Virus record (IMG/VR): IMGVR_UViG_3300044730_002040
Span: 11,795 to 75,794 of that record
DNA: 64,000 bases
Source of the DNA: a virus
Taxonomy: Duplodnaviria > Caudoviricetes
Direction: 5' to 3' (one strand)
Under the pieces are notes generated by a model. The model was not told the origin of the DNA and searched no databases. It worked only from the letters and a program-made list of their open reading frames with translations. This document shows, piece by piece, positions 1,572 through 38,472 of the stretch (positions are counted from its first letter, which is position 1; each line of letters begins with the position of its first letter). Position numbers and translations under genes: made by a program.

Positions 1572-1585
1572 TGTAAATCATTCTA

Positions 1586-5823: not shown

Positions 5824-5884
5824 AAAATTTACGAGTGGTTTATTGGCTTTCACACTATCGTGAAGTTTACCTTACTCATTACCC

Positions 5885-6314: not shown

Positions 6315-7994
6315 TTATGACTCTTTACGAAGTTCTCTATTATAATGTTCGAACCTGTTATGTTCCGTGGGTGTCATCAACAAGATACCAGGTTTTAATT
6401 GACCTTTTTTGGTGAGTTGATACATGTGACTCATCCACGTTTGTTCAAAAGGATGTGCCCATGTAGTTTCTAAAAACATTTTTTGATTTCCTGTTTTTGA
6501 AACAATTTGAGGCCAATTACAGTAGTAAATCTCACCTGTGGCATAAGGAACTCCCTTATGTGATAAAATTGAATCAAACTCAAGTTTTGGTGCATTTGGG
6601 TCCAATCCCATTTGTGGAAGTCTTGGTTTACCAGGCCAAAACTCCTCTCTCACATTTTGAGGAACATTGTACCATGACCATTGAACACTATTGTCACCAA
6701 AAAATTCAGTGTAATTTAATTTTAAAAAATCAAAATTTTCTTTTTTAGCAATTTCTAAAGATTTTGTGTATAAGTTGTCCACTTTTCTATTGAAACCGTT
6801 TCTACAAACTTCTCCATCTTTACAATAAAAAAACATGTCATCTTCGAAGAACAAATAATAATGTAAATCAGTTTTGTCGAAGTGCTCCGCAATGAACTGT
6901 CTTCCACCACAAATTCCTAAATTACCTTCATCAGGTATAATGTGTTCAAAATCATATTTTTCACAAAGATATTTGTATGCTTCATATGTTGAATTATCTG
7001 TAGAATTATTCAGAAGGAATTTTTTCGTCTTGTTAAGATAATCTTTATCGTATTCCAAAAACGAATTTATCAAAGTTTCGAATTGTTTCGGACTATTAAA
7101 TGTGATTACATACAACCCAACTTTGTTGATATCAAGATTATTTTTCGATACAACACTTGTTTCATTCTTAACTTCCAAAACATCATTTTTCAAATCTTCA
7201 AAAAACTTACCAATAAGTCCGTTATATTCAATTTTGAAATAATTTATTAAATCAGAGTGTTTGTAACACATGATACTGAAAATCGATTCTTCAGTTCCCA
7301 TGTAACCTTCTTCAAGAGTAGATTTCAACAATCCATAATAGATAGAGTTTATTGAAGGTATTGTTGATTTTGGTCCACCAAAGAACCCTCCTCTTGCAAC
7401 TTTATTTACTTTGGCACCCGCAAGTTCATTTAACTTATTGTATTCAAATCCATGAATTTCTCTTTCTGCATCATAAGGAAAACAAATAAATGAAAACTTG
7501 GAAATGTATTTGGTTAGTTTATCTAATACTTTGTCATGAGTAAAATAACCAGGATGAACAGTATTTGTTAATCCACCATCAATCCAAAACATGTATTCAG
7601 AATCAAACTTATCCATTATTTTTGCGTCATGTAAAAGAAACACTTTGGACATAACAAGGGGGTTATAATTCTCCAATCTTGCTTGTGTTGAATCTTTCAA
7701 CCAGCCCGACAGGTTTTTCCAATCTTCTCTATTTCTTATTTGTTGAATTAACGGATAAAACTCATTGTCAATGAACCAAGAAAGAGGTCGTTCTATGAAT
7801 TGTGTATTTTTTTCACTTCTTCTTTGGAAAACGAATTCCCTCAAAGACGATTCGCCAAATACGATAAGATTTTCCTCCACCTTCAACAACGATTCAAATT
7901 TATCCAAATAATGTTGAAAAGGTCTTGCCCAACCCTCAGAGAGAGATGACCTTCCTATGTCCCATATTCCTGTTACAAGAGTTATATTATTCAT
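6315..7994 (-). CDS. two-domain glycosyltransferase (HtrL/YibB-like plus GT-A/GT2-like)
   Basis: TLVTGIWDIGR, FWIDGG, GGFFGG, GTEESI in the N-half; YVITFN and FFEDD in the C-half. Confidence 0.7.
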   Translation of the reverse strand: MNNITLVTGIWDIGRSSLSEGWARPFQHYLDKFESLLKVEENLIVFGESSLREFVFQRRSEKNTQFIERPLSWFIDNEFYPLIQQIRNREDWKNLSGWLKDSTQARLENYNPLVMSKVFLLHDAKIMDKFDSEYMFWIDGGLTNTVHPGYFTHDKVLDKLTKYISKFSFICFPYDAEREIHGFEYNKLNELAGAKVNKVARGGFFGGPKSTIPSINSIYYGLLKSTLEEGYMGTEESIFSIMCYKHSDLINYFKIEYNGLIGKFFEDLKNDVLEVKNETSVVSKNNLDINKVGLYVITFNSPKQFETLINSFLEYDKDYLNKTKKFLLNNSTDNSTYEAYKYLCEKYDFEHIIPDEGNLGICGGRQFIAEHFDKTDLHYYLFFEDDMFFYCKDGEVCRNGFNRKVDNLYTKSLEIAKKENFDFLKLNYTEFFGDNSVQWSWYNVPQNVREEFWPGKPRLPQMGLDPNAPKLEFDSILSHKGVPYATGEIYYCNWPQIVSKTGNQKMFLETTWAHPFEQTWMSHMYQLTKKGQLKPGILLMTPTEHNRFEHYNRELRKES

Positions 7995-8868
7995 AAATTC
8001 TATTAAATTCTTCTAATATTCTGAAAAAACTTTTATTTAATGTAAAGAAAGTTTCATCCACTCCACTTGGCGCATTGTCCCTACACCACCAAATATCGAA
8101 ATGTTTTCTATAAAACAACTCTTGGTGGTTGAAAAACATGAGACTCATGATGTTTTCTTCGTGGGGTAATTGTTTAATATCTTCGATAACTTTTTTTGCA
8201 TAATCTTCAAATAAGTTTACAACTTCATCCCACTTACTTTTGTGTCCCCCAAAAAGACCACCAATGATGTGAATGCTCCTATCATAGTTTTTATACCATT
8301 TTGGGTCTAAGGTTCCTGACCAATAGTTTCTTTCATTCTCTTTACCAATAAGTAAAAACTTATCACCCGTATCTTCAATCATATTTTTTAAAAAATCATT
8401 ATTGAAAAGATTGGATTCATAATACCTTCTTTCGAGCTGGTTGTTGGTCAAATATTTCAAAGGGATTAAACCACAATGAGAAAGACCTGCATCAATCCAA
8501 TAGTAGTAATCATAACTTTTATCTTCATTCCACCACCAATGAAATTTTGAATATTGAATTTCAATACATCTGTCACCCGCTTTTATTGCACCAACATCCT
8601 TATAGGATAAAATCAAATCTTTGAATTTTGTTTGAGTTAAATCAAAAACTTTAAATTCCAATTTACTTGGATTGATTTGGTGTGTTTCATAAAAAAAGGT
8701 TTTTAGATTTTCCAATTCTCTGTCTGATGTGTAACACAAAAAATCGGCTTCAGTCATTTTAAGTAGAGATAATAAACTGTATCTGTAATGACTTACTCTT
8801 TGAGGTCTTCCTCCAAACTCTGTACCATTCAAATCACTGTAGATACAAGTAATAAATTTAACTGACAT
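7987..8868 (-). CDS. HtrL/YibB-like glycosyltransferase
   Basis: YYWIDAG, IGGLFGG, HEENIM motifs; start moved to ATG 8868, overlapping the upstream stop. Confidence 0.65.
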   Translation of the reverse strand: MSVKFITCIYSDLNGTEFGGRPQRVSHYRYSLLSLLKMTEADFLCYTSDRELENLKTFFYETHQINPSKLEFKVFDLTQTKFKDLILSYKDVGAIKAGDRCIEIQYSKFHWWWNEDKSYDYYYWIDAGLSHCGLIPLKYLTNNQLERRYYESNLFNNDFLKNMIEDTGDKFLLIGKENERNYWSGTLDPKWYKNYDRSIHIIGGLFGGHKSKWDEVVNLFEDYAKKVIEDIKQLPHEENIMSLMFFNHQELFYRKHFDIWWCRDNAPSGVDETFFTLNKSFFRILEEFNRIYE

Positions 8869-9592
8869 AATAAAAATCTTTGTGAATATTATTTTCTTTA
8901 AGTTCTTTAAGGTTGACACCATTTAAAAACTCACTAGGAATTTTGAAAGGACTGTATAAATTCCAGTTGTAAGTTTGAGTGTAAAAGTTATTATATTGTC
9001 CTTGAGAAACATCCGACCAACTACTAATTTGCGGTGCTAATGGTAGGATTGGAGAATAACTCTGTTTTCTTGGGTAGACAAATTGATAAATGAAATCATC
9101 AATCGCATAGTAACCCAAATTTTCAGGTTTCGCAATTTCCATAACTCCATCGTAAATGGAATTATGATATAACATAAAATTAGTTGCAAATATACCTCTT
9201 TCATGTTCTTTTTTCGGAGGGAGGTTTGTTATATCCAAGAACAAAGGTTGAATTGAACTTTGTAGTACTGGTCTATTCAAAGTGGGAGCAAAATTTATTA
9301 CACCGAATTCAAAATCATCAGTCTCATTTTCAATCTTATTTATTAAACTTTTTGAATAAGGTAAAAATGTACAATCATCTTCTATGACCATTACAGACTC
9401 ATAATTTCTCTCTTTTGCTAATTTCAAAATTTCAAAATGAGATAAACTACAACCTCCGTGATTGTTCAAATCAATTGCTTTGAACAATTCAAAGTCCCAA
9501 CCGATATACTCCATTTCTTTTTTGATATGTTCCAACCGGTCAGGTCTTCTTTCTAAATTTACAACAAATTTGGGTATATTTGATAGGTTCAT
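8858..9592 (-). CDS. GT25 family glycosyltransferase
   Basis: VVNLERRPDR, GCSLSH, VIEDD signature motifs. Confidence 0.85.
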   Translation of the reverse strand: MNLSNIPKFVVNLERRPDRLEHIKKEMEYIGWDFELFKAIDLNNHGGCSLSHFEILKLAKERNYESVMVIEDDCTFLPYSKSLINKIENETDDFEFGVINFAPTLNRPVLQSSIQPLFLDITNLPPKKEHERGIFATNFMLYHNSIYDGVMEIAKPENLGYYAIDDFIYQFVYPRKQSYSPILPLAPQISSWSDVSQGQYNNFYTQTYNWNLYSPFKIPSEFLNGVNLKELKENNIHKDFYYVS

Positions 9593-10860
9593 TAACTTAC
9601 GTGATTGTGGTTTAGTTGTCCCGTTAATCTATCACACCAACCTTTTGATTCAGAGTGAGGCCACACCACCCAATACTTTGGAAGAACGTCAGTTTGAAAT
9701 TCTCTCCATATCTTACAGTATTTGTCTGGGTCATTCATCATTCTGGCAATCTCGTTTTTATCCGCATCTTTTCTAAATAATGTTTCATCGTTCGGTCCGT
9801 GGAACGCAACTACCCAAAAATCATAATCCTTTTCAGGAACACTAGAATATCCAACATCAATACAATGTTTATAAACTGATGCAAAATCTTTTTTCCAAGC
9901 CTCTTCGTTTTCATAGTTATATGGATTTGGAGGATAATTTTTATCCAAAGTATATCTTTGAACCGCTCTTTTCTCAAACAACAAACCCGAATATTTTTCG
10001 TAATCTCTTAAGGTTCTTACAGTTCCAAATCCGTACGGACCATCATGACCTTCTTGTGTTTCACCATCCATACCGAAAAGTTTTCTATTGGTCAGATGTG
10101 AATGTCTATTTTTTTCACCCCAAGTTTTATCATCATCCCATTGTTTAGTTCTACCTTTACGAGTGTACTCATGGTATACAACAGGAATGTGTGGATGGAA
10201 TAAGTCGTATCCCCACGTGTAAGCTCTCGCCGCTATTGAAATCTCTTCGCCATGAAAATAATATTCAGGATTGTGTTGAACTTCTTTGGAGAACTCACCC
10301 AAAGTGAAGCAAAAGTGTGCCGAGTAAAATCTTGCAGTTACAGGTTTTGTCATTTCTCTCCAACCTGGTATTGTTTCGGGCAAAAAGAAAACAGCCCCTT
10401 CAGGGATAAATCTATCGAATACCATTCTCCATGCATCTTTTGCTCTCCCTGCGGGGTCGTTGTCAGGGTCAAAGGAAGGTACGTAACCCGTAAGTAGAGG
10501 TTTTTTGTACCCGTCCTTTTGTAGACCCTTAATCATTTTTATTAAAGTATCATCCCAATCCTTTTCAAATCTCATATGAGAATCGATTTGCATTGTATAC
10601 TTTTCATTTTTATAAAGTTGTTGAACTAAGTGTCTTGCCCAACAAACACCCTTGGCTTCTTGGTATGGGATATTCAAAATTCTGAATCTTTTATCATCTT
10701 TCCATTCATCCAAGTTATCAAAACCATCAGTTTCAGAATATTGTCTTGCAATACCTATGACAAGGTTTTCAGGTTTTTTGGCATTTGCCAACATATCTTT
10801 AATTGTTGGAACAAGCTGTGGGTCTCTGTAAGATGCGATTTGAATAAAAATTTTGTTCAT
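9592..10860 (-). CDS. GT60 family polypeptide alpha-GlcNAc-transferase-like protein
   Basis: IFIQIASYRD, GVCWARH, QIDSHMRF..DWD, GEEISIAARAYTWGYD match the Dictyostelium Gnt1/Gnt2 and Trypanosoma OGNT family; start moved to ATG 10860. Confidence 0.85.
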   Translation of the reverse strand: MNKIFIQIASYRDPQLVPTIKDMLANAKKPENLVIGIARQYSETDGFDNLDEWKDDKRFRILNIPYQEAKGVCWARHLVQQLYKNEKYTMQIDSHMRFEKDWDDTLIKMIKGLQKDGYKKPLLTGYVPSFDPDNDPAGRAKDAWRMVFDRFIPEGAVFFLPETIPGWREMTKPVTARFYSAHFCFTLGEFSKEVQHNPEYYFHGEEISIAARAYTWGYDLFHPHIPVVYHEYTRKGRTKQWDDDKTWGEKNRHSHLTNRKLFGMDGETQEGHDGPYGFGTVRTLRDYEKYSGLLFEKRAVQRYTLDKNYPPNPYNYENEEAWKKDFASVYKHCIDVGYSSVPEKDYDFWVVAFHGPNDETLFRKDADKNEIARMMNDPDKYCKIWREFQTDVLPKYWVVWPHSESKGWCDRLTGQLNHNHVS

Positions 10861-10882
10861 GAAATATATTTTGTATAAAAAT

Positions 10883-10911
10883 AAAAAACCCTCCACAAAA
10901 GTAGAGGGTTT
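10883..10911 (-). terminator. Rho-independent terminator
   Basis: minus strand AAACCCTCTAC-TTTT-GTGGAGGGTTTTTT downstream of the 10936 gene. Confidence 0.75.
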
Positions 10912-10935
10912 AAAAGAAATTAGTTTTTGTATTAA

Positions 10936-12669
10936 TTAGTCCGTAATATCCAATTGCACTACGTCGTTAGTATATACAGGTACACCTCCACTACTTAAAG
11001 CAATAGCTATTGAACCAGTAGAAGTTCCTGAGTATATGAATATACTATTGTTGTAAACCGCGTAATTATAGGTACTTGAACCACTAACAGCAGCAACAGG
11101 ATTTGTATCAGTTGTTGGATGATTTCCACTTAAGGTTTGACCACTCAAAACAGGGAATGGAATTGATTGAAAATTAAGACTTATCGGTCCTGAATCATCA
11201 CTGAAACCATCAATCTGAACATCAGTTGTTGCATTGTTATTAAAAATTAAATTAATTGGAAGCGTTGATGTAGGTGTTGGAGTTGAAGTTTGTGTTGGAG
11301 TTTGTGTATTTGTTGGTGTTTGTGTTGGAGTTTGTGTATTTGTTGAAGTTTGTGTTGGAGTTTGTGTATTTGTTGGTGTTTGTGTTGGAGTTTGTGTTGG
11401 TAATCCTGAGCAACCATTAGGGTCACTACTTGTAATCAATCCTGAACCACCAGTCACCAAATACCAAGCGGTTCCATTTGAATAGTAACCATCAGCGACT
11501 GTGTTTGTTGGAGGATTACCAGCTGTTTGATACAAAGCTTCACCGATATTAGGACCAATGCCACCTGAAACTGAACCATAAACTGTATTTGGTGATGATG
11601 TAAAGTTATCACAAGCATCATTAGGTGTTGCACCTGAACCTAAAGTATATTCATAATATCCACGAGTTGCCGTCGGTGTTGTTGTTGGAGTAGGTGTTGG
11701 TGTTTCTGTAGTTGTTGTAGTTGGAGTAGGTGTTGGAGTTGGTATAACCGCACAACTATCCATTCCCCCCACTTGAGAACCGTAAGTATCTATTTCAGTC
11801 ACTATACTACTGTTAACATAGAATCCTGCAGTGAATCCTGTTGTACCTATATCATCTAAGTAAAACTGTGTACAATCATTGAATATAGAAAAATTTCCCC
11901 AAATTGTTCCTACAGTTCCTGAAGCACAAGCCTCATTTGCTGTTGAGCCTGAGCCAACAGGAAATGCAAATATCACAGGGGTGGGTGTCGGAGAAGAAGT
12001 TTGTGTTGGGGTATTAGTGTTTGTAGGTGTGTTTGTAGGAGTTTGAGTATTAGTAGGTGTTGGTGTTGGACCACAAGTCCCGTAAACCTCTATAGTTGCA
12101 CCTGTAATACAACCAACGGAACAACCGCTACTTACTAAGTAAATAATTCCATCTTCTGTGTAGTAACCCTCAGGATTTCCAGTATTAGGTCCGAATTGGT
12201 CTGACCAAACTAAAGTTGAATCCGCCAAACTAGTTCCGTTTACAAAAATTGTAGCAGTTCCAGGACAGTTACAAATTGAACCAAAATTAAACGCACTATG
12301 ACAAACATTTGATAAAGTTGTTCTTAGAATATTTGTTGGTGTGGGTGTTTGGGTGGTTGTTGGTGTATTAGTTTGTGTTGGTGTGTTTGTATTAGTCGGC
12401 GTATTGGTTGGTGTTGGAGTCTTTGTTGGAGTAGCGGAGGCCGTAATACTTGGAGTTGAAGTTACAGTAAGAGATGGGAATTCACCCTCATCTACAACTA
12501 CGATTCTCGGGAATGCCGATGAATAAGTATTGTTTAACAACCAAATGTTTTTTACTTCATTTGGTAATAATTCCACTTGGTATTGCCACAGTGCATCATC
12601 ACATCTTTGATAATTGAATGTGACGATTGTGGTTCCTGTATTTGTTAGATTATATTTACTGCACGCCAT
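10936..12669 (-). CDS. mucin-like virion protein: Cys-bracketed modules joined by Thr/Pro linkers
   Basis: Five TPT(N/Q)T-type tracts separating small beta-rich domains; no signal peptide; late motif upstream. Confidence 0.75.
   Translation of the reverse strand: MACSKYNLTNTGTTIVTFNYQRCDDALWQYQVELLPNEVKNIWLLNNTYSSAFPRIVVVDEGEFPSLTVTSTPSITASATPTKTPTPTNTPTNTNTPTQTNTPTTTQTPTPTNILRTTLSNVCHSAFNFGSICNCPGTATIFVNGTSLADSTLVWSDQFGPNTGNPEGYYTEDGIIYLVSSGCSVGCITGATIEVYGTCGPTPTPTNTQTPTNTPTNTNTPTQTSSPTPTPVIFAFPVGSGSTANEACASGTVGTIWGNFSIFNDCTQFYLDDIGTTGFTAGFYVNSSIVTEIDTYGSQVGGMDSCAVIPTPTPTPTTTTTETPTPTPTTTPTATRGYYEYTLGSGATPNDACDNFTSSPNTVYGSVSGGIGPNIGEALYQTAGNPPTNTVADGYYSNGTAWYLVTGGSGLITSSDPNGCSGLPTQTPTQTPTNTQTPTQTSTNTQTPTQTPTNTQTPTQTSTPTPTSTLPINLIFNNNATTDVQIDGFSDDSGPISLNFQSIPFPVLSGQTLSGNHPTTDTNPVAAVSGSSTYNYAVYNNSIFIYSGTSTGSIAIALSSGGVPVYTNDVVQLDITD
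11282..11400. repeat. tandem ~30/60-bp coding repeat ([10 protein letters not shown])
   Basis: 11282-11337 identical to 11342-11397. Confidence 0.85.
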
Positions 12670-12684
12670 TTTAAATCTTTTTTA

Positions 12685-12692
12685 TATAAATA
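12685..12692 (-). promoter_or_regulatory. candidate late promoter TATTTATA
   Basis: upstream of the mucin-like gene (start 12669). Confidence 0.65.
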
Positions 12693-12730
12693 CTTGTCCT
12701 CGAAGAAAAATTTTTCTTTTTTCAATTAAC

Positions 12731-13258
12731 TTATGGACAAATTCCAATGTTCACAACCAAACCTGTCAGTAGGTCGATTTGTATCCATGTATTACCATCG
12801 GTAATTGTCATTTGAGCTCCGATTGGAGGTATTGTACAAAGAGGATTTCCATATACATAATCACCTGCCACAAGTTCAGGGAATGGGATAAATGAATAAA
12901 TTGTAACATTTGAAGGTCCATAACCGGCCTCATCACAGGCGTTATTCCAAACAGAATCTGTCCAAAGATTATCCATATAAACCAAAGCCGGTGTCGGTGT
13001 AGGTGTTGGGTGAGGTGTAGGTGTGATTGGAGGTGTAACTGTTGGTGTAGGGGTAGGACCAGGAATTACAACAGTATAAGTGTATTTGCAACTTGGCAAA
13101 TAACAATAGAATGTTCCGTAGACATAATCGGACTCATAGGTAAAAGGAAAAACTTTTTCACCAAGTGTAATTGTTCCCCCCGAATCAGGCATGAAAACTA
13201 CATTAGTGAGTTGTCCACTAAAATTGATACTTGATATAGTTACACCACAATCTGACAT
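12731..13258 (-). CDS. small Thr/Pro-linker virion protein
   Basis: Two small domains joined by PTPTPTVTPPITPTPHPTPTPTP. Confidence 0.65.
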   Translation of the reverse strand: MSDCGVTISSINFSGQLTNVVFMPDSGGTITLGEKVFPFTYESDYVYGTFYCYLPSCKYTYTVVIPGPTPTPTVTPPITPTPHPTPTPTPALVYMDNLWTDSVWNNACDEAGYGPSNVTIYSFIPFPELVAGDYVYGNPLCTIPPIGAQMTITDGNTWIQIDLLTGLVVNIGICP

Positions 13259-13259
13259 T

Positions 13260-14465
13260 TTAAACTTGTGTTACTGTAACAATTATTGATGGTGTTGCAG
13301 GTTTTGCATATGGTGTTGTTTGTATTGGTTCACCTAACAACTCATATGTGGTATCCGCTGACGCCCAAACAATTTCCAAATATTCATTAGCATTCAACTG
13401 TTCCAAAATATTCCACGCAGCAACCAACTTTCCTGTCGAACCTTGTTTTGGAACTTGCATTTCAGTGTTTGAATTTGGTAAGTCAACACCATTTTTTCTA
13501 AACCAAATTGCAATTTCGTCTGTTCCGCTTGAGGTTTTATTAAGTTGTGATGAAAATTGTAAATTGTAAATTCCAGAGTTTAATACCACAAATTTTGTTC
13601 CTCCACTTAATACCACACCACTTGATAATGATGAAGTGTTTGCACTCATGACTTGTGGAGTGTTAGCTGCCGCTAATGGCTGTGTTTCAGTGTCATAAAA
13701 CGCCCCATAAGATTTGGTGGTTCCCGTTGCAGAAGTCCCAGATGTTCCTGATGAACCTGACGTTCCAGTTGAACCAGATGTTCCTGAAGAGCCTGAACTA
13801 CCATCTGTACCTGAAGTTCCTGAAGAACCATCTGTACCACTTGTTCCTGAAGAACCATCTGTACCTGAAGAACCGCTTGTTCCTGAGCTACCATCTGTAC
13901 CTGAAGTTCCTGATGAACCATCTATTCCACTTGTTCCTGAACTACCATCTATACCTGAAGTTCCACTTGAGCCATCTGTTCCACTTGTTCCTGAACTTCC
14001 ATCTATACCTGAAGTACCTGATGAACCATCTATTCCACTTGTTCCTGAACTACCATCTATACCTGAAGTTCCACTTGAGCCATCTGTTCCACTTGTTCCT
14101 GAACTACCATCTATACCTGAAGTTCCACTAGTTCCTGATGAACCATCTGTCCCACTAGTTCCTGAACTTCCATCTATACCTGAAGTACCTGATGAACCAT
14201 CTATACCACTAGTTCCCGAACTACCATCCGTTCCACTTGAACCAGAAGTTCCTGATGAACCGTCTATTCCACTTGTACCAGAACTACCATCTATTCCGCT
14301 AGTTCCACTTGTTCCTGTTGAACCTGAAAATTGTTCTGTTAATGATGAGAAATATATTTTATTTGTAATACCTGATGGGTCAACATCGTAGTTTACAATC
14401 GCCATCCAAGATTCAGGTTGTCCTGACGTTGCTAATGGTAATTGGGATATCGGTAAATTTGGCAT
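13260..14465 (-). CDS. collagen-like (Gly-X-Y) fibre protein with C1q/BclA-C-like head
   Basis: 66 uninterrupted Gly-X-Y triplets; C-terminal YGAFYD...SGIYNLQFSSQL...WFRKNG trimer-type domain; N-terminal ISQLP. Confidence 0.8.
   Translation of the reverse strand: MPNLPISQLPLATSGQPESWMAIVNYDVDPSGITNKIYFSSLTEQFSGSTGTSGTSGIDGSSGTSGIDGSSGTSGSSGTDGSSGTSGIDGSSGTSGIDGSSGTSGTDGSSGTSGTSGIDGSSGTSGTDGSSGTSGIDGSSGTSGIDGSSGTSGIDGSSGTSGTDGSSGTSGIDGSSGTSGIDGSSGTSGTDGSSGTSGSSGTDGSSGTSGTDGSSGTSGTDGSSGSSGTSGSTGTSGSSGTSGTSATGTTKSYGAFYDTETQPLAAANTPQVMSANTSSLSSGVVLSGGTKFVVLNSGIYNLQFSSQLNKTSSGTDEIAIWFRKNGVDLPNSNTEMQVPKQGSTGKLVAAWNILEQLNANEYLEIVWASADTTYELLGEPIQTTPYAKPATPSIIVTVTQV
13731..14324 (-). repeat. Gly-X-Y coding repeat (GSS-GTS-GID/GTD)n
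   Basis: 9/27-bp periodic tract with a near-identical block repeated at 108-bp spacing (from about 13921 and 14029). Confidence 0.9.
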
Positions 14466-14477
14466 TTTGTTTTATTT

Positions 14478-14485
14478 TATAAATA
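14478..14485 (-). promoter_or_regulatory. candidate late promoter TATTTATA
   Basis: upstream of the collagen-like gene. Confidence 0.65.
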
Positions 14486-14510
14486 TGTTTTTATAGTCCG
14501 TATTTTGATT

Positions 14511-15023
14511 TTAACTTATTTTAATATATCCGTAATCAACCGTAACGTTTGAACCTGTATTGTTTTGAATACCGAATACAAATGTATTAGTTGTTGTGCC
14601 TACAGCTGGTGAAGCGGTGGATATTGCACCCGCAGTTCCTATAATCTGTACAGGTATACTTGTAAACAATATTGGACTACCCCCACCAGTATAATTCCAT
14701 GCATACTGAACACCGATTACGGGTACATTAAGATTACTTATACTTACTGTAGCATTATAAACTATTATACCATTTGGTATATTTCCCTGAACCCATAAGT
14801 TATATGTGTTTCTGTCAGCAACTGTAAAACTGTAGTTATTAGTCCCTGGAGTCACCGTCCAACTTCCTGAGACTGGTGATACCACATTTGTTGAATATCC
14901 ACTAAATAATGTTTCTTTAGCCACCTTAAATGATTCCGTATTACCACTATTGTTCATAACAATAAACGACCCATTAGTATTTCCCGTAAATGTTGGTAAT
15001 TGACTTATTTTTGTGTTTGCCAT
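14511..15023 (-). CDS. putative fibre/spike protein
   Basis: N-terminal MANTKISQLP, beta-rich Thr/Ser/Gly composition, in the structural operon. Confidence 0.55.
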   Translation of the reverse strand: MANTKISQLPTFTGNTNGSFIVMNNSGNTESFKVAKETLFSGYSTNVVSPVSGSWTVTPGTNNYSFTVADRNTYNLWVQGNIPNGIIVYNATVSISNLNVPVIGVQYAWNYTGGGSPILFTSIPVQIIGTAGAISTASPAVGTTTNTFVFGIQNNTGSNVTVDYGYIKIS

Positions 15024-15044
15024 TTTATTTTATATTAATTTTTT

Positions 15045-18000
15045 TTATAGTTCATATTTGGATTTATCTGCATTGAAGTTTTGTAAAACTTGTGCAGAAG
15101 TTAATGATGTATCATACATTCTTATAATTCCAACAGTTCCTTTGAATGGAACTTGTAATCCTCCAGTTCCTGACGCAACTCTTCCTGCAATACCAACGGG
15201 ACTCGTATTACTTACTTGTCCCACACCAACTAAACTTGTAGTTCCGCCAGATACACCATCTCTATAAACTGTTAGAGTGTCACCAACGAAATCAAATACC
15301 GCAACTAGTTGTTTCCAAGTATTGACAGGGAATCCTGTCACACTAACTTGAGGGAAGTTAGTACCGTCGTAAGCCGCCACTAACATACTACTTGCACCTT
15401 CATTAAATCTAATTGTGTAGGGGTACCTTGGTTCATTGTTTAAGTTCCATTTCTCCAACAATTCAGCCTCACCTGCGTTAGGTTGACCATTTGCAGGATT
15501 GAACCATATCTCAACCGTATATTGTTGAGAATTTGTGAAGTTTGTTACACCATTCACACTTGGTATTCTACCATAAGATGAAGTTCCGTTAAAAGTAAAT
15601 CCACTTAATATATTGTATGTTGGACTTCCTGATAGAGTGGCGTCAGTTGTTCCAACAGTTGTATCCCAAACATTTCCTGAACCAACATAACTACTTGGTA
15701 ATAATTGTAGTTGTAAGTTTGTTGTAACAATATTAGGTGTTGCGGATGGTGTTTGAGTTTGAGTAACTGTTGGTGTTACTGTTGGCGTACTTGTTGTTGT
15801 AGGTGTAGGTGTTGGTTCCACAAATCTTGGAGCCAAGTAATTGTATTGTTGTGTTATTTCAGCAAGGTTTAATTGTCTGTTATAGAAATACATGTTAGCA
15901 ACATGTCCCCAAGGTTGACCCGCCGTATCATTATTACCCCATCCCCAATGTGTGGTTCCACCAGCACCCGCACTGATTGTGATACCCACTTGGGAACCAT
16001 TTATGTAGAATGTTTGAGATGTATTTGTTCCAACTACAGCATACTGAACCCAAACTTCAGCTGAAGATGCAACATCATATCCCGAACTTTTGAAAGAAGT
16101 ATCCCAATATCCTAATGTGTTTGATGCGTTAGGGATTGTAATTGGTGTGTATTTTGGCGAGTTTGTGTAAAGTAATGTTCTAAATCCAGCAGTACTAGGT
16201 ATTAATCTTGCCCAAGTAATATATGTGTATCCTGAGTTGGGTAACGTAGGTCCTGTTAAGTTGTAATTAACTCTATTATTTCCTGTCGTACAATCAAAAC
16301 ATTTTATACCATTAAGAACTGTGTAAGTTGCACCGATTAATGTATGGTTGTATCCACCTGTGATATCAAAAACAGTTGTTCCTCCAGAATAACTCGAACT
16401 CTCATAAGCGTCAAGTTGAATAACCAATCCTGAAGTTACAATATTATTTGGTGTTGTAGATGGTGTTGGTGTTAATGTTCCTGTATTGGTATTTGTTGGC
16501 GTTTGAGTCTGGGTAGGTGTCTCTGTGTTAGTAGGTGTTACAGTATTAGTTACCGTTGGCGTTTGTGTCGGAGTTTCCGTATTTGTTGGTGTTGGTGATG
16601 GAATAATATCAATTTGAATATTATCATCATTTTCCGCAGTTGCAACTGAGTTATCTTCAAACAGTAAGAAATCTAAATCAGGTAAAGTTGGGGTCGGAGT
16701 GTTAGTTGTTGTTGGTGTTGAAGTAATAATTGGTGTTTCAGTTGGGGTATTAGTAGGAGTATTGGTAGGAGTTTCACTTGGTGTATTTGTAGGCGTTTCA
16801 GTGTTAGTAGGGGTGTTAGTAGGAGTTGCAGTTTGAGTGGGAGATGGTGATGCAACTTGTATTAAAATACCAAATCCATCCTCTTGTAAAATCATAAAAT
16901 AATCTTCCTGTAACAAGAAATTATCGTCAGGTAATGTTGGTGTTGGTGTAGGCGTTTCTGTGTTTGTCGGTGTGTTTGTTGGGGTTTGAGTTGGTTCTGC
17001 AGTCACTGAAGGCGTAGGCGTCTCAGTGTTTGTAGGCGTTAATGTTGGTGTGGGCGTAGTTGTAGACTCAGGGGTTTGAGTTGGAGTCTGAGTTGGAGTT
17101 TCTGTTGGAGTCTGTGTTGCAGTCTCACTTGGTGTTTGAGTTATTGTTTCTGTAGGCGTAAATGTAGGAGTCTGAGTTGGAGTTTCAGAATTAGTAGGAG
17201 TCTGAGTTATAGTCTCCGTAGGAGTCTGAGTTGGAGTATCAGTAATAGTAGGTGTGTTCGTCGGGGTTGGTGTTTCAGTTGGAGTTTCAGTAGGTGTAGG
17301 GGTGCTTGTTTCAGTAGGGGTTGATGTGGAACCAACCGTTGCAGTGGTAGATGGCGTGGCGGTTTGAGTGGGTGTTTCAGTTGGAGTTTGTGTTGATGTC
17401 TCCGTGTTTGTAGGTGTTGCGGTTTGTGTTGGTGTCTCTGTATTTGTAGGAGTCTGTGTTTGGGTAGGAGTTTCAGTCTGAGTAGGTGTTTCAGTTTGAG
17501 TGGGTGTTTCAGTTGGAGTTGAAGTCTGAGTTTGTGTTGGTGTTTCTGTAGGGGTTGGTGTCTCTGTATTGGTAGGAGTCTGTGTTTGGGTAGGTGTCTC
17601 GGTCTGAGTAGGAGTTTCAGTAGGAGTTTGTGTGGCTGTTTCAGTATTCGTTGGAGTAGAGGTATTTGTTGGAGTCTGTGTTGGACACAATGAGAATGCA
17701 CCAATTGTGAAACCATCAGAATCCAATTCAATAACAACATCGTTATATGAATAATAACCAGTTAAATCCACAGTATTTGGACCTGATATTGAATCAAAAA
17801 ACTGAACGTTTTCATCAAAAACTGGTTTATCACCCCATATTGTTCCCGTGTCAAGACACAAACATGCATCACTTAACGAAGTCCCTGAACAAACATTAAA
17901 TTGAAATCTCAAATTAGTTGGTGTAGGTGTTGATGTCGTAGTATTTGTTGGAGTGTTTGTTGGAGTTTCAGTGTTCGTCGGAGTTTGTGTTGGTGTCTCA

Positions 18001-20279
18001 GTTGGTGTAGGTGTTGAAGTTTGCGTGAAAGAAGGCGTTGGTGTTTGAGTTGTACATAACGAGTACGGACTTATTGTTACACCACTTGAATTAAGTTCAA
18101 CAACAACATTATTGTAAGCAAAATAACCTGTCAGGTCTGTGGTGTTAGGTCCGAACACGGAATCATAAAATTCTATATTGTCATCAAAATTTGGTTTATC
18201 ACCCCATATTGTGCCTGTGTCAGTACAATTGCAGGCATCGTAAGATGTGACCCCTGAACAAACAATGAATTGTGTTCTTAGATTTGTTGGTGTGGGTGTT
18301 ATTGTGTTAGTTGGTGTTACGGTTTGTGTTGGCGTGTTTGATGGTGTATTTGTTGGAGTTGATGTTTGTGTTGGTGTTGGGCATGGGTAGAAAGAATATG
18401 TTAAATCGTTTGGAGGACAATCAATTACACAAACAACACAATTAGGGTCTAATAGTTGGTATCTTTGTTTTAACAATCTAAAATTGTGGGCAACCTCAGA
18501 GGCATCCAACGGCTCGGTATACATTCTAAAGGCACTTATATCCCCTATGAAACTGCCCCCGAATATTTCTTCCAATTTTATCTCAGTGGTCAACCCTGAA
18601 TAAATTGTATGTGTTAAGTCTTCAGTTGTAAGACACTCAGGGTCCTGTTGATAGGTCATTCCTGAAAGAGAAGGTGGACATCCACCAGATAAAGTAAGGT
18701 TGTCATGGAGACCTTGAGTACCTCCACCGAGAGAAATATTATACCCCACACCAATTTGTTTTTCTCTTGGTGTATTAAGAAGCCTTGGAATTATTTCCTC
18801 AAAATCAGGAATAATCATAAACGGTCTTCCGTTCACATAAATTATAAAATCACCTAATCTATATTTCTTTTCATCAAACCAAGAATCTTTGAAATGGACA
18901 ACTTCAGTTGTTGCGGGTTCAATATCGTCATGGGTTATCGGAGGTTCAATTAAACTCAATGTATTATTGGCTGTAGTAGCCGTATATTCTTTGGAAACAA
19001 TCAATCCTAAACCACCCAAGTCTCTCAAATCACATAATTCGAACCACTCTCTTCTTCTGAATACAGCATCTATTTGAACCCAATGTTCCGTTTCGGAGTA
19101 AGTGGTTCCGGTACAAAAATCAAATATACCCCTGGTTGAGCACCACTCAGTTACGGACGTTCCTGTATGATATGTTAATCCTGTCGTACAAGTTCCAGTG
19201 GTTTCACAACCTCCTGTAATAGTATAAACTTTAACACAAACTCTTGGGTTTCCTGTGTCTCCTGAAAGTCTTATAGACATAGCATTTGAAACACCATCAT
19301 AAAGTGGGTCTAATTCAGGTATCGAAGCATAAATTCCACAAGAGCAAGGACATCCACAATTACAATTTGTTGAGGTTACTCCTGAGGGTTGATAAACTGG
19401 TATACAACTATGAGAGTTTGAAATTCCTGATAAACCACACTCACAAGTATTCATGCAAGTGAGACCCGATGTAACCCTTGTGTATCCTGTATCTTGTTTC
19501 GGACTTCCATCAGCGTAGTGATAGAATTTGTTTTCGGCTCTTGCCCCCATGAAAAAGAAAGTACCTTTGTTATCGGGATATCGGTTATTGAGACCAATGT
19601 TGGTTGTACCTGTCCATCTATATCTCAACATAAATTCTGCAGACCATCCGAGATTAACTCTTTCAGGGAAAATCTGATATTCGTATCCGGCTAATTTGTA
19701 AAACCCTTGGAAAAATCCCCCTTGTAATCTTGCGAAATAACCTACTTCATCTCCATAGGTGGTGTAATCTAAATTATAGGTGTATGAGTTGTCGTTCCAA
19801 AGTCTGTTATTTGTTGTTGTAAAACCAGTGATAGGGTGCATTTTGAAACGTCTATCATACTTGTAACGACTAAACTTGTCATTTATATTTGTATAAAGTC
19901 CGGTTGTAATATCTATTGTCTCTCCTGATATTTGTTTTACAAGTCCGTTGTCAATACCAGTCAAACCTACATTACACAATGTTGATGCTGTTGGACAGAA
20001 ATTTGGGTCAATATCATCAGGGTTCCAATAGTTTTCTGATACTATTGTGTCGGAGTCAAAAGAACAAGTTGTTCTCTGACAAAGTGTTGTGGCTGAAGAA
20101 TCAAAATCAAACCTGAAAGGCATTACGTTTCCATCAGTTTGTCCAATGAGAAGCGGAGAAAAAACAACCTCTTGGTTGAATTCTCTTTCGTCAGTTGCCA
20201 GACATATATCTGAGATTTCTCTGACAGGAACTAAACCATATTTTCTGTAATTGTACTGTAGAATATTCTGATAAGCCAT
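15045..20279 (-). CDS. large mucin-like virion protein with LamG/ConA-like lectin domains
   Basis: Cys-rich N-domain ending [15 protein letters not shown]; two duplicated ~80-aa modules; ~250-aa Thr/Pro tract; two C-terminal LamG-like domains ([23 protein letters not shown]). Start moved to ATG 20279. Confidence 0.8.
16935..17685 (-). repeat. long Thr/Pro low-complexity coding repeat (TPTETPTQT)
   Basis: degenerate 6/12/18-bp repeats encoding about 250 aa dominated by T and P. Confidence 0.9.
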
Positions 20280-22941: not shown

Positions 22942-24153
22942 ATGTCCAAAATTAACGTATTAGTAATTCCATCCGACAGAACCGGAGTAGGTAAATTCAG
23001 GTCAGTAGACCCCCACATTTTTTTACAAAATTTATATCCTGAAGATTTTCACGTAGATATTTCATTTGAAGTTCCTCTCAATAACTTAGATTTCTTCAAA
23101 AAATATCAAATAGTTGCACTTCACAGAAGTATAGGTCCTGATTTTGACAAAGCAGCAGAAGTAATACAAGAACTAAATAAAATGGGTATTGCAACCGTCT
23201 GTGACATTGATGATTATTGGATGCCAGGTAAAGAGCATCCTATTCATGATGTAATCAAATTCAATAAAATCAATGAAAAGATTGTTACTAATTTGAGGGT
23301 AGCCAAATATGTTAGTACTACAACTACAATCTTTGCAGACGAAATAAAAAAATTGAACCCCAACATCGTTATTTTTCCAAACGCAATCAATCCAAACGAA
23401 ACCCAATTCAAAGAACCAACTTTACCCTCAGACCGTTTGAGAGTTGGTTGGCTCGGTGGTTCATCACATCTTCATGACATACAACTTTTAGACCAATCAT
23501 TCAGTAAACTTGAAAGGTATAAAGATGAATTACAATTTGTTTTGTGTGGATTTGATACTAGAGGTAGTGTTACTGAAATAAATTCAGCAAATGGAGAACA
23601 CAAAAAAAGAGACATTTTACCTCACGAAACCGTATGGGCCAGATACGAAGAAATTTTTACACAAAAATATTCTACCGTATCCGAGGAATACAAAAAACAT
23701 TTACTACAATATGGTAAAGAAGATTACTCCAATGCAATGAATGAAGCATATCTCAGAGTTTGGACCAAACCAGTAACATCGTATGCAAAGAACTACTCTA
23801 AATTTGATGTTTCTTTAGCACCGATTAAAAACACAATGTTCAATAGAGTAAAATCTCAACTTAAAGTAATTGAAGCTGGTTTCTATAAAAAAGCACTTAT
23901 TGCTTCAAATATCGGTCCTTACACAATTGATTTGAAACATTCACTACAAAACGGTAACTTTGTTGATGGAAACGCTCTTCTTGTTGATGAGAATAGAAAT
24001 CATTCGGATTGGGCCAAATACATTGAAAAATTATTGAAAAACCCCAACATGGTTAAAGATATGGGTGAAAGATTGTATGAGACTGTAAAAGACAAATATG
24101 ATTTATCTATTGTAACCAAATCAAGAGCTGAGTTCTACAAATCAATTGTATGA
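22942..24153 (+). CDS. GT-B (GT4-like) glycosyltransferase
   Basis: DIDDYW, VGWLGGSSH, FDVSLAP...FNRVKSQLKVIEAG. Confidence 0.85.
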   Translation: MSKINVLVIPSDRTGVGKFRSVDPHIFLQNLYPEDFHVDISFEVPLNNLDFFKKYQIVALHRSIGPDFDKAAEVIQELNKMGIATVCDIDDYWMPGKEHPIHDVIKFNKINEKIVTNLRVAKYVSTTTTIFADEIKKLNPNIVIFPNAINPNETQFKEPTLPSDRLRVGWLGGSSHLHDIQLLDQSFSKLERYKDELQFVLCGFDTRGSVTEINSANGEHKKRDILPHETVWARYEEIFTQKYSTVSEEYKKHLLQYGKEDYSNAMNEAYLRVWTKPVTSYAKNYSKFDVSLAPIKNTMFNRVKSQLKVIEAGFYKKALIASNIGPYTIDLKHSLQNGNFVDGNALLVDENRNHSDWAKYIEKLLKNPNMVKDMGERLYETVKDKYDLSIVTKSRAEFYKSIV

Positions 24154-24851
24154 TAAACATACCTTTCAATAAACTTTTATTCTTAGATATTGAAACCGTC
24201 GGAATCGAGCCGACGTGGGATGACTTGGTAAAAAACAGACCTGCACTCTCATTTCAGTTTCAAAATTATTTAGATTGGTTTCAAAAAAGATTTCCTGAAG
24301 ATGCAGACAAACCAATCTCAGAAATGTTTGTTAATAGGTCAGCATTAGTTCCTGAATTCAATAGAGTTGTCTGTGTGAGTGTTGCGTTTGTAACAGATTC
24401 TAATATCACCAAAGTTCAGTCATTCAACGATGTTGAAGAAAAAAAACTTTTGTTTGATGTTCAAAAACTTTTGGAAAAAGTAGGAGAATTAGGTTTTTTC
24501 TTATGTGGACACAATGTCAAAGGATTTGACATTCCCGTTCTTGCAAAAAGGATGATAATGAATGGGTTAAAACCTCCTAAGATTTTACCAGGTCATGATA
24601 CAAAACCTTGGGAAATCAAAGCCTTTGATACCAAGGAATTTTGGCAATTCAATAACTATACATCAATAGCGTCATTAGAACTTATGAGTGTTTGTCTTAA
24701 TGTACCATCTCCAAAAACAATGGAAGTCACAGGGAACAAGGTTCACGATGCATTTTGGAATAAAAAAGATTACAAAGGAATTTCTGATTATTGTGAAGCA
24801 GATGTACGTTGTCTAATTGATGTTGTAAAAAAAATCACAAATTTAAAATAA
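24150..24851 (+). CDS. standalone PolB-type 3'-5' exonuclease
   Basis: LDIETV, GHNVKGFD, YCEAD (DEDDy motifs). Confidence 0.85.
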   Translation: MINIPFNKLLFLDIETVGIEPTWDDLVKNRPALSFQFQNYLDWFQKRFPEDADKPISEMFVNRSALVPEFNRVVCVSVAFVTDSNITKVQSFNDVEEKKLLFDVQKLLEKVGELGFFLCGHNVKGFDIPVLAKRMIMNGLKPPKILPGHDTKPWEIKAFDTKEFWQFNNYTSIASLELMSVCLNVPSPKTMEVTGNKVHDAFWNKKDYKGISDYCEADVRCLIDVVKKITNLK

Positions 24852-24852
24852 T

Positions 24853-25446
24853 ATGGAAACAAGTTACGATGATGAATTAAAAGGCCTCTTTGAAAAATTA
24901 CAAGAGGAAATCAAAAAAACAGATACAGGTGATGACGATGAACTTTCTAACCTTATCAACATTTCTTTTGAAGATTTGGAACAGGAATTTATGAGAGAAC
25001 AAAATACAAAAGTCATCAAATTCAAGAGATTGTCAGAAGATGTTAAATCACCATCTTACGTATATGAATTAGACTCTGGTTTTGATTTATATTCTACAGA
25101 AAAAATTGTTTTAGGTCCATTTGGTAGAGCTTTAGTACCGACAGGATTGTCATTTGATATTCCTGAAGGTTATGAAATACAGGTAAGACCTAAGAGCGGT
25201 CTTGCAATCAACATGGGTTTGACTGTTTTGAATACCCCTGGTACAGTTGACCGAGGTTATTTGGGAGAAATCAAAGTTCCCGTGTTCAACACAAATAATA
25301 GTTCTATAACAATCGAAAAAGGAATGAAAGTTGCTCAAGCTGTGTTGTGTCCCGTTGTTTGTGGTAAATTTGTGAAATTTGATGAGGTAGATAGTTTAGG
25401 TGATTCAGATAGGGGTGATAAAGGTTTCGGTAGTACAGGTATTTAA
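24853..25446 (+). CDS. dut: trimeric dUTPase with acidic N-terminal extension
   Basis: SGFDL, RPKSGLA, GTVDRGYLG, AQ, RGDKGFGSTG. Confidence 0.95.
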   Translation: METSYDDELKGLFEKLQEEIKKTDTGDDDELSNLINISFEDLEQEFMREQNTKVIKFKRLSEDVKSPSYVYELDSGFDLYSTEKIVLGPFGRALVPTGLSFDIPEGYEIQVRPKSGLAINMGLTVLNTPGTVDRGYLGEIKVPVFNTNNSSITIEKGMKVAQAVLCPVVCGKFVKFDEVDSLGDSDRGDKGFGSTGI

Positions 25447-25463
25447 TTTTTAAACCTAACACG

Positions 25464-25634
25464 ATGGGAAAATATTATGAAAATCTTGACACCTTAATAG
25501 ACCTTATTAAGAAATTAGAAAAGAAAAATCAATTAGCCGAGTTTATGTTGGATTGTATTTCTCGAGCAAGAAAAGAACCCGACAAAACAGCCCACGAAAT
25601 TATCAAAGAATCCAAAAATAAAATTTTGAAATGA
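25464..25634 (+). CDS. small hypothetical protein (56 aa, below the ORF-track cutoff)
   Basis: MGKYYENLDTLIDLIKKLEKKNQLAEFMLDCISRARKEPDKTAHEIIKESKNKILK; fills the intergenic gap; ATGA overlap with the next gene. Confidence 0.6.
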   Translation: MGKYYENLDTLIDLIKKLEKKNQLAEFMLDCISRARKEPDKTAHEIIKESKNKILK

Positions 25635-27966: not shown

Positions 27967-27967
27967 A

Positions 27968-28657: not shown

Positions 28658-28658
28658 A

Positions 28659-29210: not shown

Positions 29211-29211
29211 T

Positions 29212-29982: not shown

Positions 29983-29986
29983 TAAT

Positions 29987-30784: not shown

Positions 30785-30786
30785 TA

Positions 30787-33649: not shown

Positions 33650-33651
33650 GG

Positions 33652-34437: not shown

Positions 34438-34438
34438 A

Positions 34439-35416: not shown

Positions 35417-35420
35417 TATT

Positions 35421-35807: not shown

Positions 35808-35823
35808 AATTAAAAATTCAAAA

Positions 35824-37414: not shown

Positions 37415-37415
37415 T

Positions 37416-38471: not shown

Positions 38472-38472
38472 T

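Follow-up and report, generated by a model that had tools for sequence, protein, structure and literature searches.

A candidate GT60-initiated O-glycosylation pathway for threonine/proline-repeat fibre proteins in a jumbo T4-like phage

The stretch analysed here (the window) comprises 64,000 nucleotides, positions 11795-75794 of the 75.8-kb IMG/VR virus record IMGVR_UViG_3300044730_002040 (CheckV completeness 25%). Its minus strand carries a block of genes in which threonine/proline (TP)-repeat proteins and a collagen-like fibre are followed by a GT60-family glycosyltransferase (GT), a GT25-family enzyme, a weakly HtrL-like open reading frame (ORF) and a dual enzyme with HtrL and GT2-like domains (Table 1). 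The favoured explanation, to which a probability of roughly 55% is assigned, is that virion fibre proteins are O-glycosylated in the cytoplasm by a pathway that the phage itself encodes. The soluble GT60 would place the first N-acetylhexosamine (HexNAc), probably alpha-N-acetylglucosamine (GlcNAc) from UDP-GlcNAc, on Thr within the TPTxTPT linkers of modular fibre proteins, the acceptors being the proteins encoded just upstream together with other TP-repeat proteins scattered through the genome. The chains would be extended by the co-transcribed GT25 and dual enzymes and possibly by a fucose-type sugar island, and a hairpin ahead of the GT60 gene would let only some transcripts through, leaving catalytic amounts of enzyme behind abundant fibre proteins. 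The analysis establishes which genes are present, to which families they belong, how their folds are related, and their co-occurrence and synteny; family, fold, co-occurrence, synteny that recurs on several backbones and one published hint point, with partial support, to O-glycosylation of the TP-repeat fibres of this phage with GT60 as the initiator, a plausible and widespread, yet unproven, form of phage protein O-glycosylation. Fibres glycosylated in this way might act as a bottle-brush and gain protease resistance, stiffness or adhesion.

The assignment of the initiating enzyme to GT60, made in a first-pass annotation from the letters of the window, was borne out by a match to PF11397 (E 8.3e-68, 229.8 bits against a cut-off of 21), which was also recovered in a six-frame search of the enzyme's own record (189.1 bits), and the protein matches phrog_24687 (E 1.6e-164). 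Residues D93, H95 and H230 are invariant in 41 aligned sequences, namely the window GT60 and 40 diverse representatives at 33-56% identity; the D-x-H motif with a downstream His is presumably the metal-binding motif of the GT-A fold. An AlphaFold (AF2) model of high confidence (predicted local distance difference test score (pLDDT) 94.9, predicted template modelling score 0.91) begins directly with a strand at residues 4-11, an N-terminal anchor being absent. Essentially all of the first 45 places in a Foldseek search with this model are taken by polypeptide N-acetylgalactosamine (GalNAc)-transferases (ppGalNAc-Ts), and the top 29 PDB entries in VIA-align are all ppGalNAc-Ts (Z 19.5-22.3, root-mean-square deviation 3.3-3.9 Å, 255-282 residues aligned), with matches covering residues 1 to ~330; generic or unrelated GT-A enzymes come next, at Z ≤18.2. 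As modelled, the fold is nearest to the mucin-type, GT27-like polypeptide GalNAc-transferases; a PDB sequence search with the protein gave 0 matches at E ≤0.01.

The beta-rich C-terminal domain (residues ~331-415) is barely covered by any PDB match when the whole model is searched with VIA-align. It occupies the place of the ricin-like lectin domain in GT27, is kept in homologs of ~420 residues and is missing from shorter or multi-domain ones; it may bind the acceptor. In the accessible text of PMC8724618, GT60 enzymes are described as protist polypeptide αGlcNAc-transferases that are related to GT27, act on mucin-type domains and are without the C-terminal ricin-like lectin domain of that family. 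The corresponding excerpts of two other papers report alpha-GlcNAc on Thr of Trypanosoma cruzi mucins (PMC3769586) and describe Gnt1 as a cytoplasmic, soluble, single-site regulatory GT60 that acts on hydroxyproline (Hyp) of Skp1 (PMC6939170). From family and fold, we infer that the phage enzyme would use UDP-GlcNAc to attach alpha-GlcNAc to a Thr or Hyp residue in a polypeptide.

Candidate acceptors lie immediately upstream, and every ORF that the first-pass annotation named in this block was recovered on the minus strand at the same coordinates. Mucin-type, low-complexity Ser/Thr/Pro tandem segments, judged from sequence alone, are present in the 1744-residue protein and three others. The six TP segments of the 1744-residue protein total 506 residues, including 223 Thr and 103 Pro, and its residues 1543-1742 match phrog_8510 ('virion structural protein', E 1.8e-14); its look-alikes in the ESM Atlas are viral and some are LamG_3 proteins. 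It matched no Pfam family, and its N-terminal 650 residues had no tblastn match in 50,697 phage records. The 577-residue protein directly upstream of GT60 matches phrog_15511 (E 4.8e-18) and phrog_38031 (E 9.3e-8). Two further claims of the first pass, the collagen-like protein with Ser/Thr-rich triplets and another mucin-like gene at 61554, agree with the Pfam match and the 135-residue TP segment given in Table 1; the latter gene has the terminase (56082-57842) and portal (54209-56044) genes among its neighbours. The best of 26 PHROG matches of the collagen-like fibre is phrog_5073 ('tail fiber protein', E 4.3e-32, residues 141-366). The proposal that none of these proteins carries a signal peptide fits the N-termini inspected, which show no hydrophobic leader when judged by eye. 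TP-repeat genes are also found beyond the block, as the complete relative G001 has nine TP-repeat ORFs across 321 kb.

Table 1. Features of the window that bear on the proposed pathway, in order of position.
Feature	Coordinates	Strand	Description
Dual glycosyltransferase, 559 aa	6315..7994	-	N-terminal HtrL_YibB domain with GT6-like GT-A fold; C-terminal GT2-like GT-A domain
ORF, 311 aa, weakly HtrL-like	7987..8922	-	BLASTP match of 49 residues (E 8e-5) with the HtrL domain of 6315-7994
GT25-family glycosyltransferase	8858..9592	-	PF01755 E 8.1e-15, 55.7 bits (cut-off 24); start overlaps GT60 stop
GT60 (PF11397 GlcNAc) glycosyltransferase, 422 aa, soluble	9592..10860	-	GT-A catalytic domain ~1-330, beta-rich C-terminal domain ~331-415; proposed initiating polypeptide O-glycosyltransferase
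Terminator-like hairpin	10911..10886	-	11-bp stem, 4-nt loop, T-run; between last TP stop (10936) and GT60 start (10860); possible attenuator
Beads-on-a-string protein, 577 aa	10936..12669	-	Four Thr/Pro linkers between small Cys-containing domains; directly upstream of GT60
Protein, 175 aa	12731..13258	-	Single Thr/Pro linker, residues 60-95
Collagen-like fibre protein	13260..14465	-	Ser/Thr-rich G-X-Y triplets (GTS, GSS, GID), non-repeat C-terminal domain; Pfam Collagen E 5.8e-30
Protein, 170 aa	14511..15023	-	N-terminal ISQLP motif shared with collagen-like fibre; probable small fibre/adaptor protein
Modular protein, 1744 aa	15045..20279	-	Globular N-terminal part, six TP segments, small Cys-containing domains, LamG-like C-terminal domains; candidate acceptor/virion fibre
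Sugar island	22942..39276	+	GDP-mannose 4,6-dehydratase, GDP-fucose-synthase-like reductase, DegT-type aminotransferase, TylF-type O-methyltransferase, GT10-, GT11-, GT2- and GT4-type transferases (Pfam)
Thr/Pro-repeat protein, 328 aa	61554..62540	-	One TP segment, 135 residues (72-206); inside head/packaging/structural block

The first-pass annotation had proposed a check for co-occurrence of GT60 with TP-repeat genes across related huge phages, and such co-occurrence was found when a DNA pattern encoding TPTxTPT was counted, the reversed pattern serving as control and giving 0 in every record searched. Motifs are present in all five GT60-positive records (G001, 74; XacN1, 51; Xoo-sp13, 51; CM1, 22; the 60-kb fragment G005, 10) and number 0 in all eight GT60-negative relatives, ~2.4 Mb in total (LR756508.1, Mel-JY01, immuto 3-5A, Xanthomonas phage XbC2, GAP32, RM378, Serratia BF and Erwinia Kaldavass), GT60 status being taken from two tblastn searches that each found just the same four phage records. 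By our own arithmetic, 5/5 against 0/8 gives a Fisher p of ~8e-4, with lineages that are partly non-independent and real support that is weaker than this value. Starting from the repeats, 11 of 47 searchable IMG/VR records picked solely by a TPTxTPTxTPT pattern carry GT60 (eight of the window clade, one ~60% identical and two new lineages), far above the background frequency in the collection (466 stretches in 2.9 million contigs).

The two gene types are also neighbours. A TP-repeat ORF is found in the GT60 locus of 79 of 80 close relatives, and it ends ≤300 nt upstream of GT60 in 61 of the 65 window-clade loci with ≥1.5 kb of upstream sequence; within this clade GT60 is 84-99% identical, while the TP genes differ greatly in how many there are and how long they are. 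The same arrangement (≤300 nt upstream) recurs in three other clusters, at 7/9, 2/2 and 2/2 loci, bringing the total to four of ten GT60 lineages, and two more clusters have TP ORFs within up to 10 kb on either side. In G049, whose GT60 is 36% identical, TP repeats stand on both sides of the gene within ~3 kb. The loci L101 and L103 represent a different backbone, in which GT60 and a GT32-like enzyme are located inside a virion module with five ORFs matching 'virion structural protein' PHROGs. This module includes a crAss muzzle-like protein, a TP giant of 1493-1863 residues and a second TP protein; GT60 and the GT32-like enzyme come next, and after them a TP protein whose C-terminal domain is of the crAss muzzle type. 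The 1863-residue giant matches phrog_14478 (E 4.9e-182), and the last TP protein in L103 belongs to phrog_38031, the family matched by the 577-residue protein of the window. A search for a cultured relative of the crAss-like L103 locus returned just the same four phage records for GT60 and none for the GT32-like enzyme. That GT60-initiated, mucin-type O-glycosylation of TP-repeat virion fibres is a conserved trait of unrelated lineages, comprising a freshwater T4-like jumbo clade, crAss-like phages and Xanthomonadaceae jumbo phages, is a tentative extension given somewhat less than even odds.

The published hint comes from XacN1, which, like Xoo-sp13 and the Stenotrophomonas phages CM1/RAS14, resembles the window phage in having a GT60 homolog at 45-50% identity, a TPTxTPT-rich proteome and a structural protein of >3200 residues with a TP segment ~9 kb from GT60. 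This group differs in its host phylum and in having a carbamoyltransferase, not GT25, after GT60. XacN1 is reported to have at least two virion glycoproteins, and in the available text its authors suggest that phage GTs make them, with ORF334 named as a candidate (PMC5852040); the family, the acceptors and a link to TP repeats are not identified in that part of the paper. ORF334 is the GT60 homolog, 47% identical to that of the window.

The window enzyme shares with the CAZy GT60 enzymes of protists (Dictyostelium, T. cruzi OGNT) the Pfam family, the GT27-like GT-A fold and the invariant D-x-H with its downstream His; the protist acceptors described in the excerpts cited are Thr-rich mucin-type domains, as the phage has TPTxTPT segments, and some Dictyostelium chains are fucose-capped according to the accessible part of PMC8724618, as the phage has a fucose-type pathway. 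It differs in being encoded by a bacterial virus, in having no N-terminal membrane anchor, in its extra domain (~331-415) without a PDB match, in its presumed acceptors, which are virion proteins synthesised in the cytoplasm of a bacterium, and in being known from sequence and model. The Skp1 pathway, in which PhyA precedes Gnt1, is alike in its cytoplasmic, soluble GT60, as far as the source text goes, and in the prolyl 4-hydroxylase (P4H)-type genes of complete relatives and the GT60-P4H fusions of metagenomes; it differs in that Skp1 is modified at a single regulatory site whereas the phage would use hundreds of repeat residues, and in that P4H-type genes are absent from other GT60-positive phages and unlinked to GT60 here.

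Virus-encoded virion glycosylation is itself already known, with accessible accounts for the chlorovirus PBCV-1 capsid, mimivirus fibrils and mycobacteriophage capsid and tail tube (PMC9614988; PMC5852040; PMC12619734, citing Freeman 2023). These systems are alike in that viral GTs modify the virus's own virion proteins without a secretory pathway, and differ in that, in the parts of the sources available, they are not described as GT60-initiated or as using TP repeats; for the mycobacteriophages, the relevant passages place glycan sites C-terminally and say that the virion glycans shield against anti-phage responses (PMC12619734). Since virion glycosylation has precedent and was suggested for XacN1 by its authors, the new part, within the literature searched, would be the GT60, mucin-type version on TP fibres across lineages; no publication linking GT60 or PF11397 to phages, nor any on phage TP-repeat O-glycosylation, was found there. 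The serine-rich-repeat adhesins of Gram-positive bacteria undergo cytoplasmic O-GlcNAc priming by GtfA/B, followed by extending GTs. They are alike in HexNAc priming on dense Ser/Thr repeats in the cytoplasm and in extension by several GTs, and different in a priming enzyme of GT-B type, Ser-rich repeats and export by an accessory Sec system.

If the tentative extension to several lineages holds, tailed phages would produce 'mucin' fibres with dense glycosylation inside the bacterial cell, in its cytoplasm, by means of a family so far characterised only in eukaryotes. The GT11-, GT10- and GT6-fold enzymes together with a GDP-fucose-type pathway could then give fucosylated chains. If the pathway works as proposed, a very abundant environmental phage group builds mucin-like glycoprotein fibres with a eukaryote-type initiating enzyme. 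Protein glycosylation of phage particles has been demonstrated in few cases, and a working pathway would matter for how phages adsorb, for the stability of their particles and their resistance to proteases in water, and for the evolutionary history of GT60 and GT27, besides providing a soluble enzyme of the bacterial cytoplasm with which mucin-type glycopeptides could be made. Cultured GT60-positive phages are available, which puts the claim within reach of a direct test.

A number of observations weigh against it. None of the window phage's proteins is known to carry a glycan, and its TP proteins would be virion components according to PHROG names and gene position only. The link between TP repeats and GT60 is neither universal nor exclusive: TP repeats can occur in the absence of GT60, which is missing from five of six TP-bearing records that are at least 90% complete; conversely, no TP ORF lies within up to 10 kb on either side of GT60 in four of ten clusters, among them L100 and L115, where GT60 sits in nucleotide-sugar islands beside replication genes; only two of the nine TP-repeat ORFs of G001 adjoin GT60; and just one of 150 GT60 representatives is fused to a TP/SP-rich stretch. 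Few independent lineages enter the co-occurrence counts: a single lineage may account for XacN1, Xoo-sp13 and CM1, and Rak2-like phages make up four of the negatives. The L107 group is only a sister of the window clade (59% identity). GT25 and HtrL are families named for lipopolysaccharide (LPS) biosynthesis, a strong terminator-like hairpin that is kept in the clade separates the fibre genes from GT60, and a candidate promoter motif, TATTTAT, is missing upstream of the four mutually overlapping GT genes.

Several of these points suit an explanation in which the GT block and sugar island are auxiliary genes for a non-protein glycoconjugate (LPS or lipooligosaccharide core, capsule or lipid-linked glycan), for example in a superinfection block, and stand beside fibres through inherited order or moron-type insertion. 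The LPS-related family names, the terminator, the sugar-island setting of L100 and L115 and the complete phages with TP repeats and no GT60 would all be expected, and the island resembles O-antigen clusters in its GDP-mannose 4,6-dehydratase (GMD), fucose-synthase-like reductase, DegT, GT2 and GT4 genes. Against this, all characterised GT60s in the cited papers, as far as their accessible text extends, act on polypeptides (PMC3769586, PMC8724618, PMC6939170), ppGalNAc-Ts score ~4 Z units above lipid- or polysaccharide-acting GT-A enzymes, GT60 lies within a virion structural module in L101/L103, the TPTxTPT counts separate GT60-positive from GT60-negative records, and XacN1 is reported to have virion glycoproteins (PMC5852040); this explanation is considered unlikely, though it is the strongest of the rivals. 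A little less probable again is a GT60 that is a protein O-glycosyltransferase with other acceptors, such as the collagen-like triplets rich in Ser/Thr, proteins of the capsid or tail, or a host protein that is modified during takeover much as Skp1 is. The family does include the single-site regulatory Gnt1 (PMC6939170, in excerpt), a collagen-like Ser/Thr-rich fibre lies in the same block with five in the complete relative, and four GT60 lineages are without nearby TP genes. The genome-wide link between GT60 and TPTxTPT, the TP genes immediately adjoining GT60 in several lineages and the description of secretory GT60s on Thr/Pro-rich mucin-type domains, in the portions cited (PMC3769586, PMC8724618), favour the TP repeats as acceptors.

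The acceptor residue raises another alternative, namely that phage P4H-type 2-oxoglutarate (2OG)-Fe(II) oxygenases hydroxylate Pro in the TP repeats and GT60 adds GlcNAc to Hyp, as in the PhyA-Gnt1 pathway. The first pass had argued for Thr from the lack of a prolyl hydroxylase in the window, and indeed no P4H-type gene was found in the window or its 75.8-kb record; this premise fails for complete relatives, as G001, G002 and G003 carry three PF13640 (P4H-type) ORFs each, the nearest solved structures of which are prolyl or PKHD-type hydroxylases (E 7.8e-5 and E 3.7e-7). Gnt1 acts on Hyp in the accessible text of PMC6939170, and five metagenomic proteins join several GT60 domains with a P4H-type domain. 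The P4H-type genes of G001, however, lie ~40 to 90 kb from GT60, the fusions are without IMG/VR relatives, and 2OG oxygenases of PF13640 have many other substrates, the NCBIfam names being weak and non-prolyl. PF13640 genes are absent from XacN1, Xoo-sp13, CM1, G049 and G024 (0/5), all with GT60 and TP repeats, and XacN1, Xoo-sp13 and CM1 are complete, GT60-positive and TP-rich. Because these five records have no PF13640 gene, Thr still appears the likelier acceptor, as first proposed, and the hydroxyproline route is judged improbable. The least probable alternative, called very unlikely here, is that the GTs glycosylate phage DNA as an anti-restriction hypermodification. The GT block adjoins the gene for a family-B DNA polymerase (PolB; 3025-5853) in the window, GT60 is located in the replication region of XacN1 and Xoo-sp13, and DNA-modifying phage GTs are well known according to the available part of PMC12619734. 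The ThyA-like gene of the relatives, by contrast, scores as a genuine thymidylate synthase (302.8 bits in TIGR03284, where the cut-off is 108), and both the fold and family of GT60, pointing to polypeptide acceptors, and its place inside the L101/L103 virion module speak against DNA; no Tet_JBP match was found, a search that was silent in control genomes too and is thus uninformative.

The five fusion proteins (P0122, P0123, P0124, P0132 and P0134; 1344-2461 residues) carry three or four GT60 domains and a P4H-type 2OG-Fe(II) oxygenase domain, and four of the five also have a peroxiredoxin (AhpC/TSA) domain, so that they look like a fused hydroxylation-glycosylation machine. With P0122 as query, no relatives were found in IMG/VR.

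Within the favoured pathway, the genes 3′ of GT60 would encode enzymes that extend the chains. They differ among lineages, being GT25 in the window, a carbamoyltransferase in XacN1, Xoo-sp13 and L107, a GT7-like enzyme in L098, and a GT32-like enzyme in L101 and L103, preceded in L101 by an FkbM methyltransferase. Because GT60 is constant and the downstream enzymes vary by lineage, this pattern fits an initiating role for GT60. The GT25 call of the first pass holds, with a Pfam score well above its cut-off (Table 1) and no NCBIfam equivalog. Of the two HtrL/YibB-like GTs that it proposed, the dual enzyme stands, with HtrL_YibB (PF09612) in residues 3-254 (E 3.5e-17, 63.3 bits against a cut-off of 24.1) and a weak GT2 match (E 0.0042), whereas the 311-residue ORF has no Pfam, PHROG or NCBIfam match and is linked to HtrL by the short BLASTP alignment only. 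Orthology of the dual enzyme to YibB was ruled out, its TIGR02192 score of 71.4 bits falling below the cut-off of 264.9. Its AF2 model (pLDDT 78.5) leaves the domain orientation uncertain; in VIA-align, GT6 enzymes (BoGT6a, ABO transferases; Z 12-13.1) align to residues 1-268 and GT2-type enzymes (Z up to 13.6) to residues 284-546. Mimivirus R699 and Streptococcus pneumoniae GlyE are among the weak fold matches of the dual enzyme. Homologs of the dual enzyme at 46-58% identity accompany GT60 in L105-L116, and three metagenomic proteins have GT60 fused to an HtrL domain. The carbamoyltransferase, ~760 residues long, directly follows GT60 in the sister lineage, XacN1 and Xoo-sp13 (L107:11263-13551, L004:13415-15712, L003:13399-15696), which suggests O-carbamoylated sugars in these phages.

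The sugar island is a possible source of donor sugars and extending enzymes. Its GMD scores 408.6 bits in NCBIfam (cut-off 415) and its reductase 178 bits against the GDP-L-fucose synthase model (cut-off 500). The nine GT genes first counted there proved too many, as eight genes have GT-family Pfam matches, one being two-domain and one (37416-38471) below the cut-off. Taken with the GT6-fold HtrL domain, the GT11-/GT10-like GTs, GMD and fucose-synthase-like reductase (6315-7994, 29948-31569, 31566-32489, 34439-35416) form a set that elsewhere makes fucosylated histo-blood-group-like glycans. A stand-alone PolB-type 3′-5′ exonuclease, a dUTPase and PhoH are also encoded among the sugar-island genes (24150-25446 and 35824-36555, both on the plus strand).

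The anatomy of the block does not support a single operon; the conserved terminator-like hairpin parts the fibre genes from the GTs. By a simple energy and T-tail criterion, a hairpin with a T-rich tail occurs upstream of GT60 at 74 of 103 loci, including 10 of 12 window-clade loci among the matches listed, and at 0 of 20 in L099-L118. The heptamer TATTTAT(A) is found on the coding strand 10-30 nt upstream of 16 of 60 genes among those listed (e.g., 12685-12692, 14478-14485, 56073-56080 and 62553-62560), including TP genes, the collagen-like gene, portal, protease, PolB and others, and is a candidate phage promoter element distinct from the T4 late box. With the hairpin in front, their mutual overlap and no TATTTAT, the GT genes form a tight unit of their own behind the hairpin. 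Attenuated read-through would give little enzyme behind much fibre protein; separate regulation is equally allowed. The T4 late promoter TATAAATA was rejected, with 9 matches against 5.4 expected, at least 9 in 11 of 100 shuffles and intergenic matches on the wrong strand, and a scan for sigma-70-type promoters gave no excess (52 observed, 54 expected). Aquatic metatranscriptome contigs are near-identical to the GT genes at 7248-7434, 9284-9434 and 9517-9667 (one mismatch each), and another, 12699-12849, matches without mismatch the end of the TP gene 12731-13258 and the spacer beyond; these are assembled contigs of one run, which cannot show transcription, strand or level and give no verdict on co-expression or the terminator.

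The window phage is a jumbo T4-like myovirus, as it carries T4-type hallmark genes in Pfam searches (gp23 capsid protein at 47878-49689, gp20 portal, prohead protease and large terminase) and has close IMG/VR relatives of up to 317-326 kb, one with direct terminal repeats. The nearest capsid proteins in the phage records searched are merely 42-45% identical and belong to an uncultured 484-kb phage, Microcystis phage Mel-JY01 and the Flavobacterium 'immuto' phages. The 'moraphage' lineage (PMC12619734) was not equated with the window phage, as it lies outside the T4 group in the text available. With the window GT60 as query, 466 IMG/VR stretches and 6,941 proteins match at E ≤1e-5, numbers from which the window clade appears very abundant in metagenomes.

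Some further features of these genomes merit description. The collagen-like fibre and the adjacent 170-residue protein (13260-14465 and 14511-15023) both start with a '(K/P)ISQLP' motif that may be a common fibre attachment module, and the latter has no Pfam, PHROG or NCBIfam match. In G001, five collagen-like ORFs are found (3-5420, 267771-275168, 319769-321139), including an 1806-residue GTS/GSS-triplet ORF at the left end and one resembling it at the right end of the terminally repeated genome, and three consecutive ORFs of 780-878 residues of GAQ type. The better of the two gp23 Pfam stretches in the 603-residue major capsid protein (minus strand) spans residues 350-588 only, and its tblastn matches span 53-66% of its length, implying large extra parts. 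Lastly, a 510-residue ORF at 31-1563 on the plus strand contains a complete Fe/Mn superoxide dismutase in residues 37-226 (Pfam E 1.8e-39 and 7.8e-23) along with ~280 further residues without a known family, and so represents a phage-encoded superoxide dismutase fusion.

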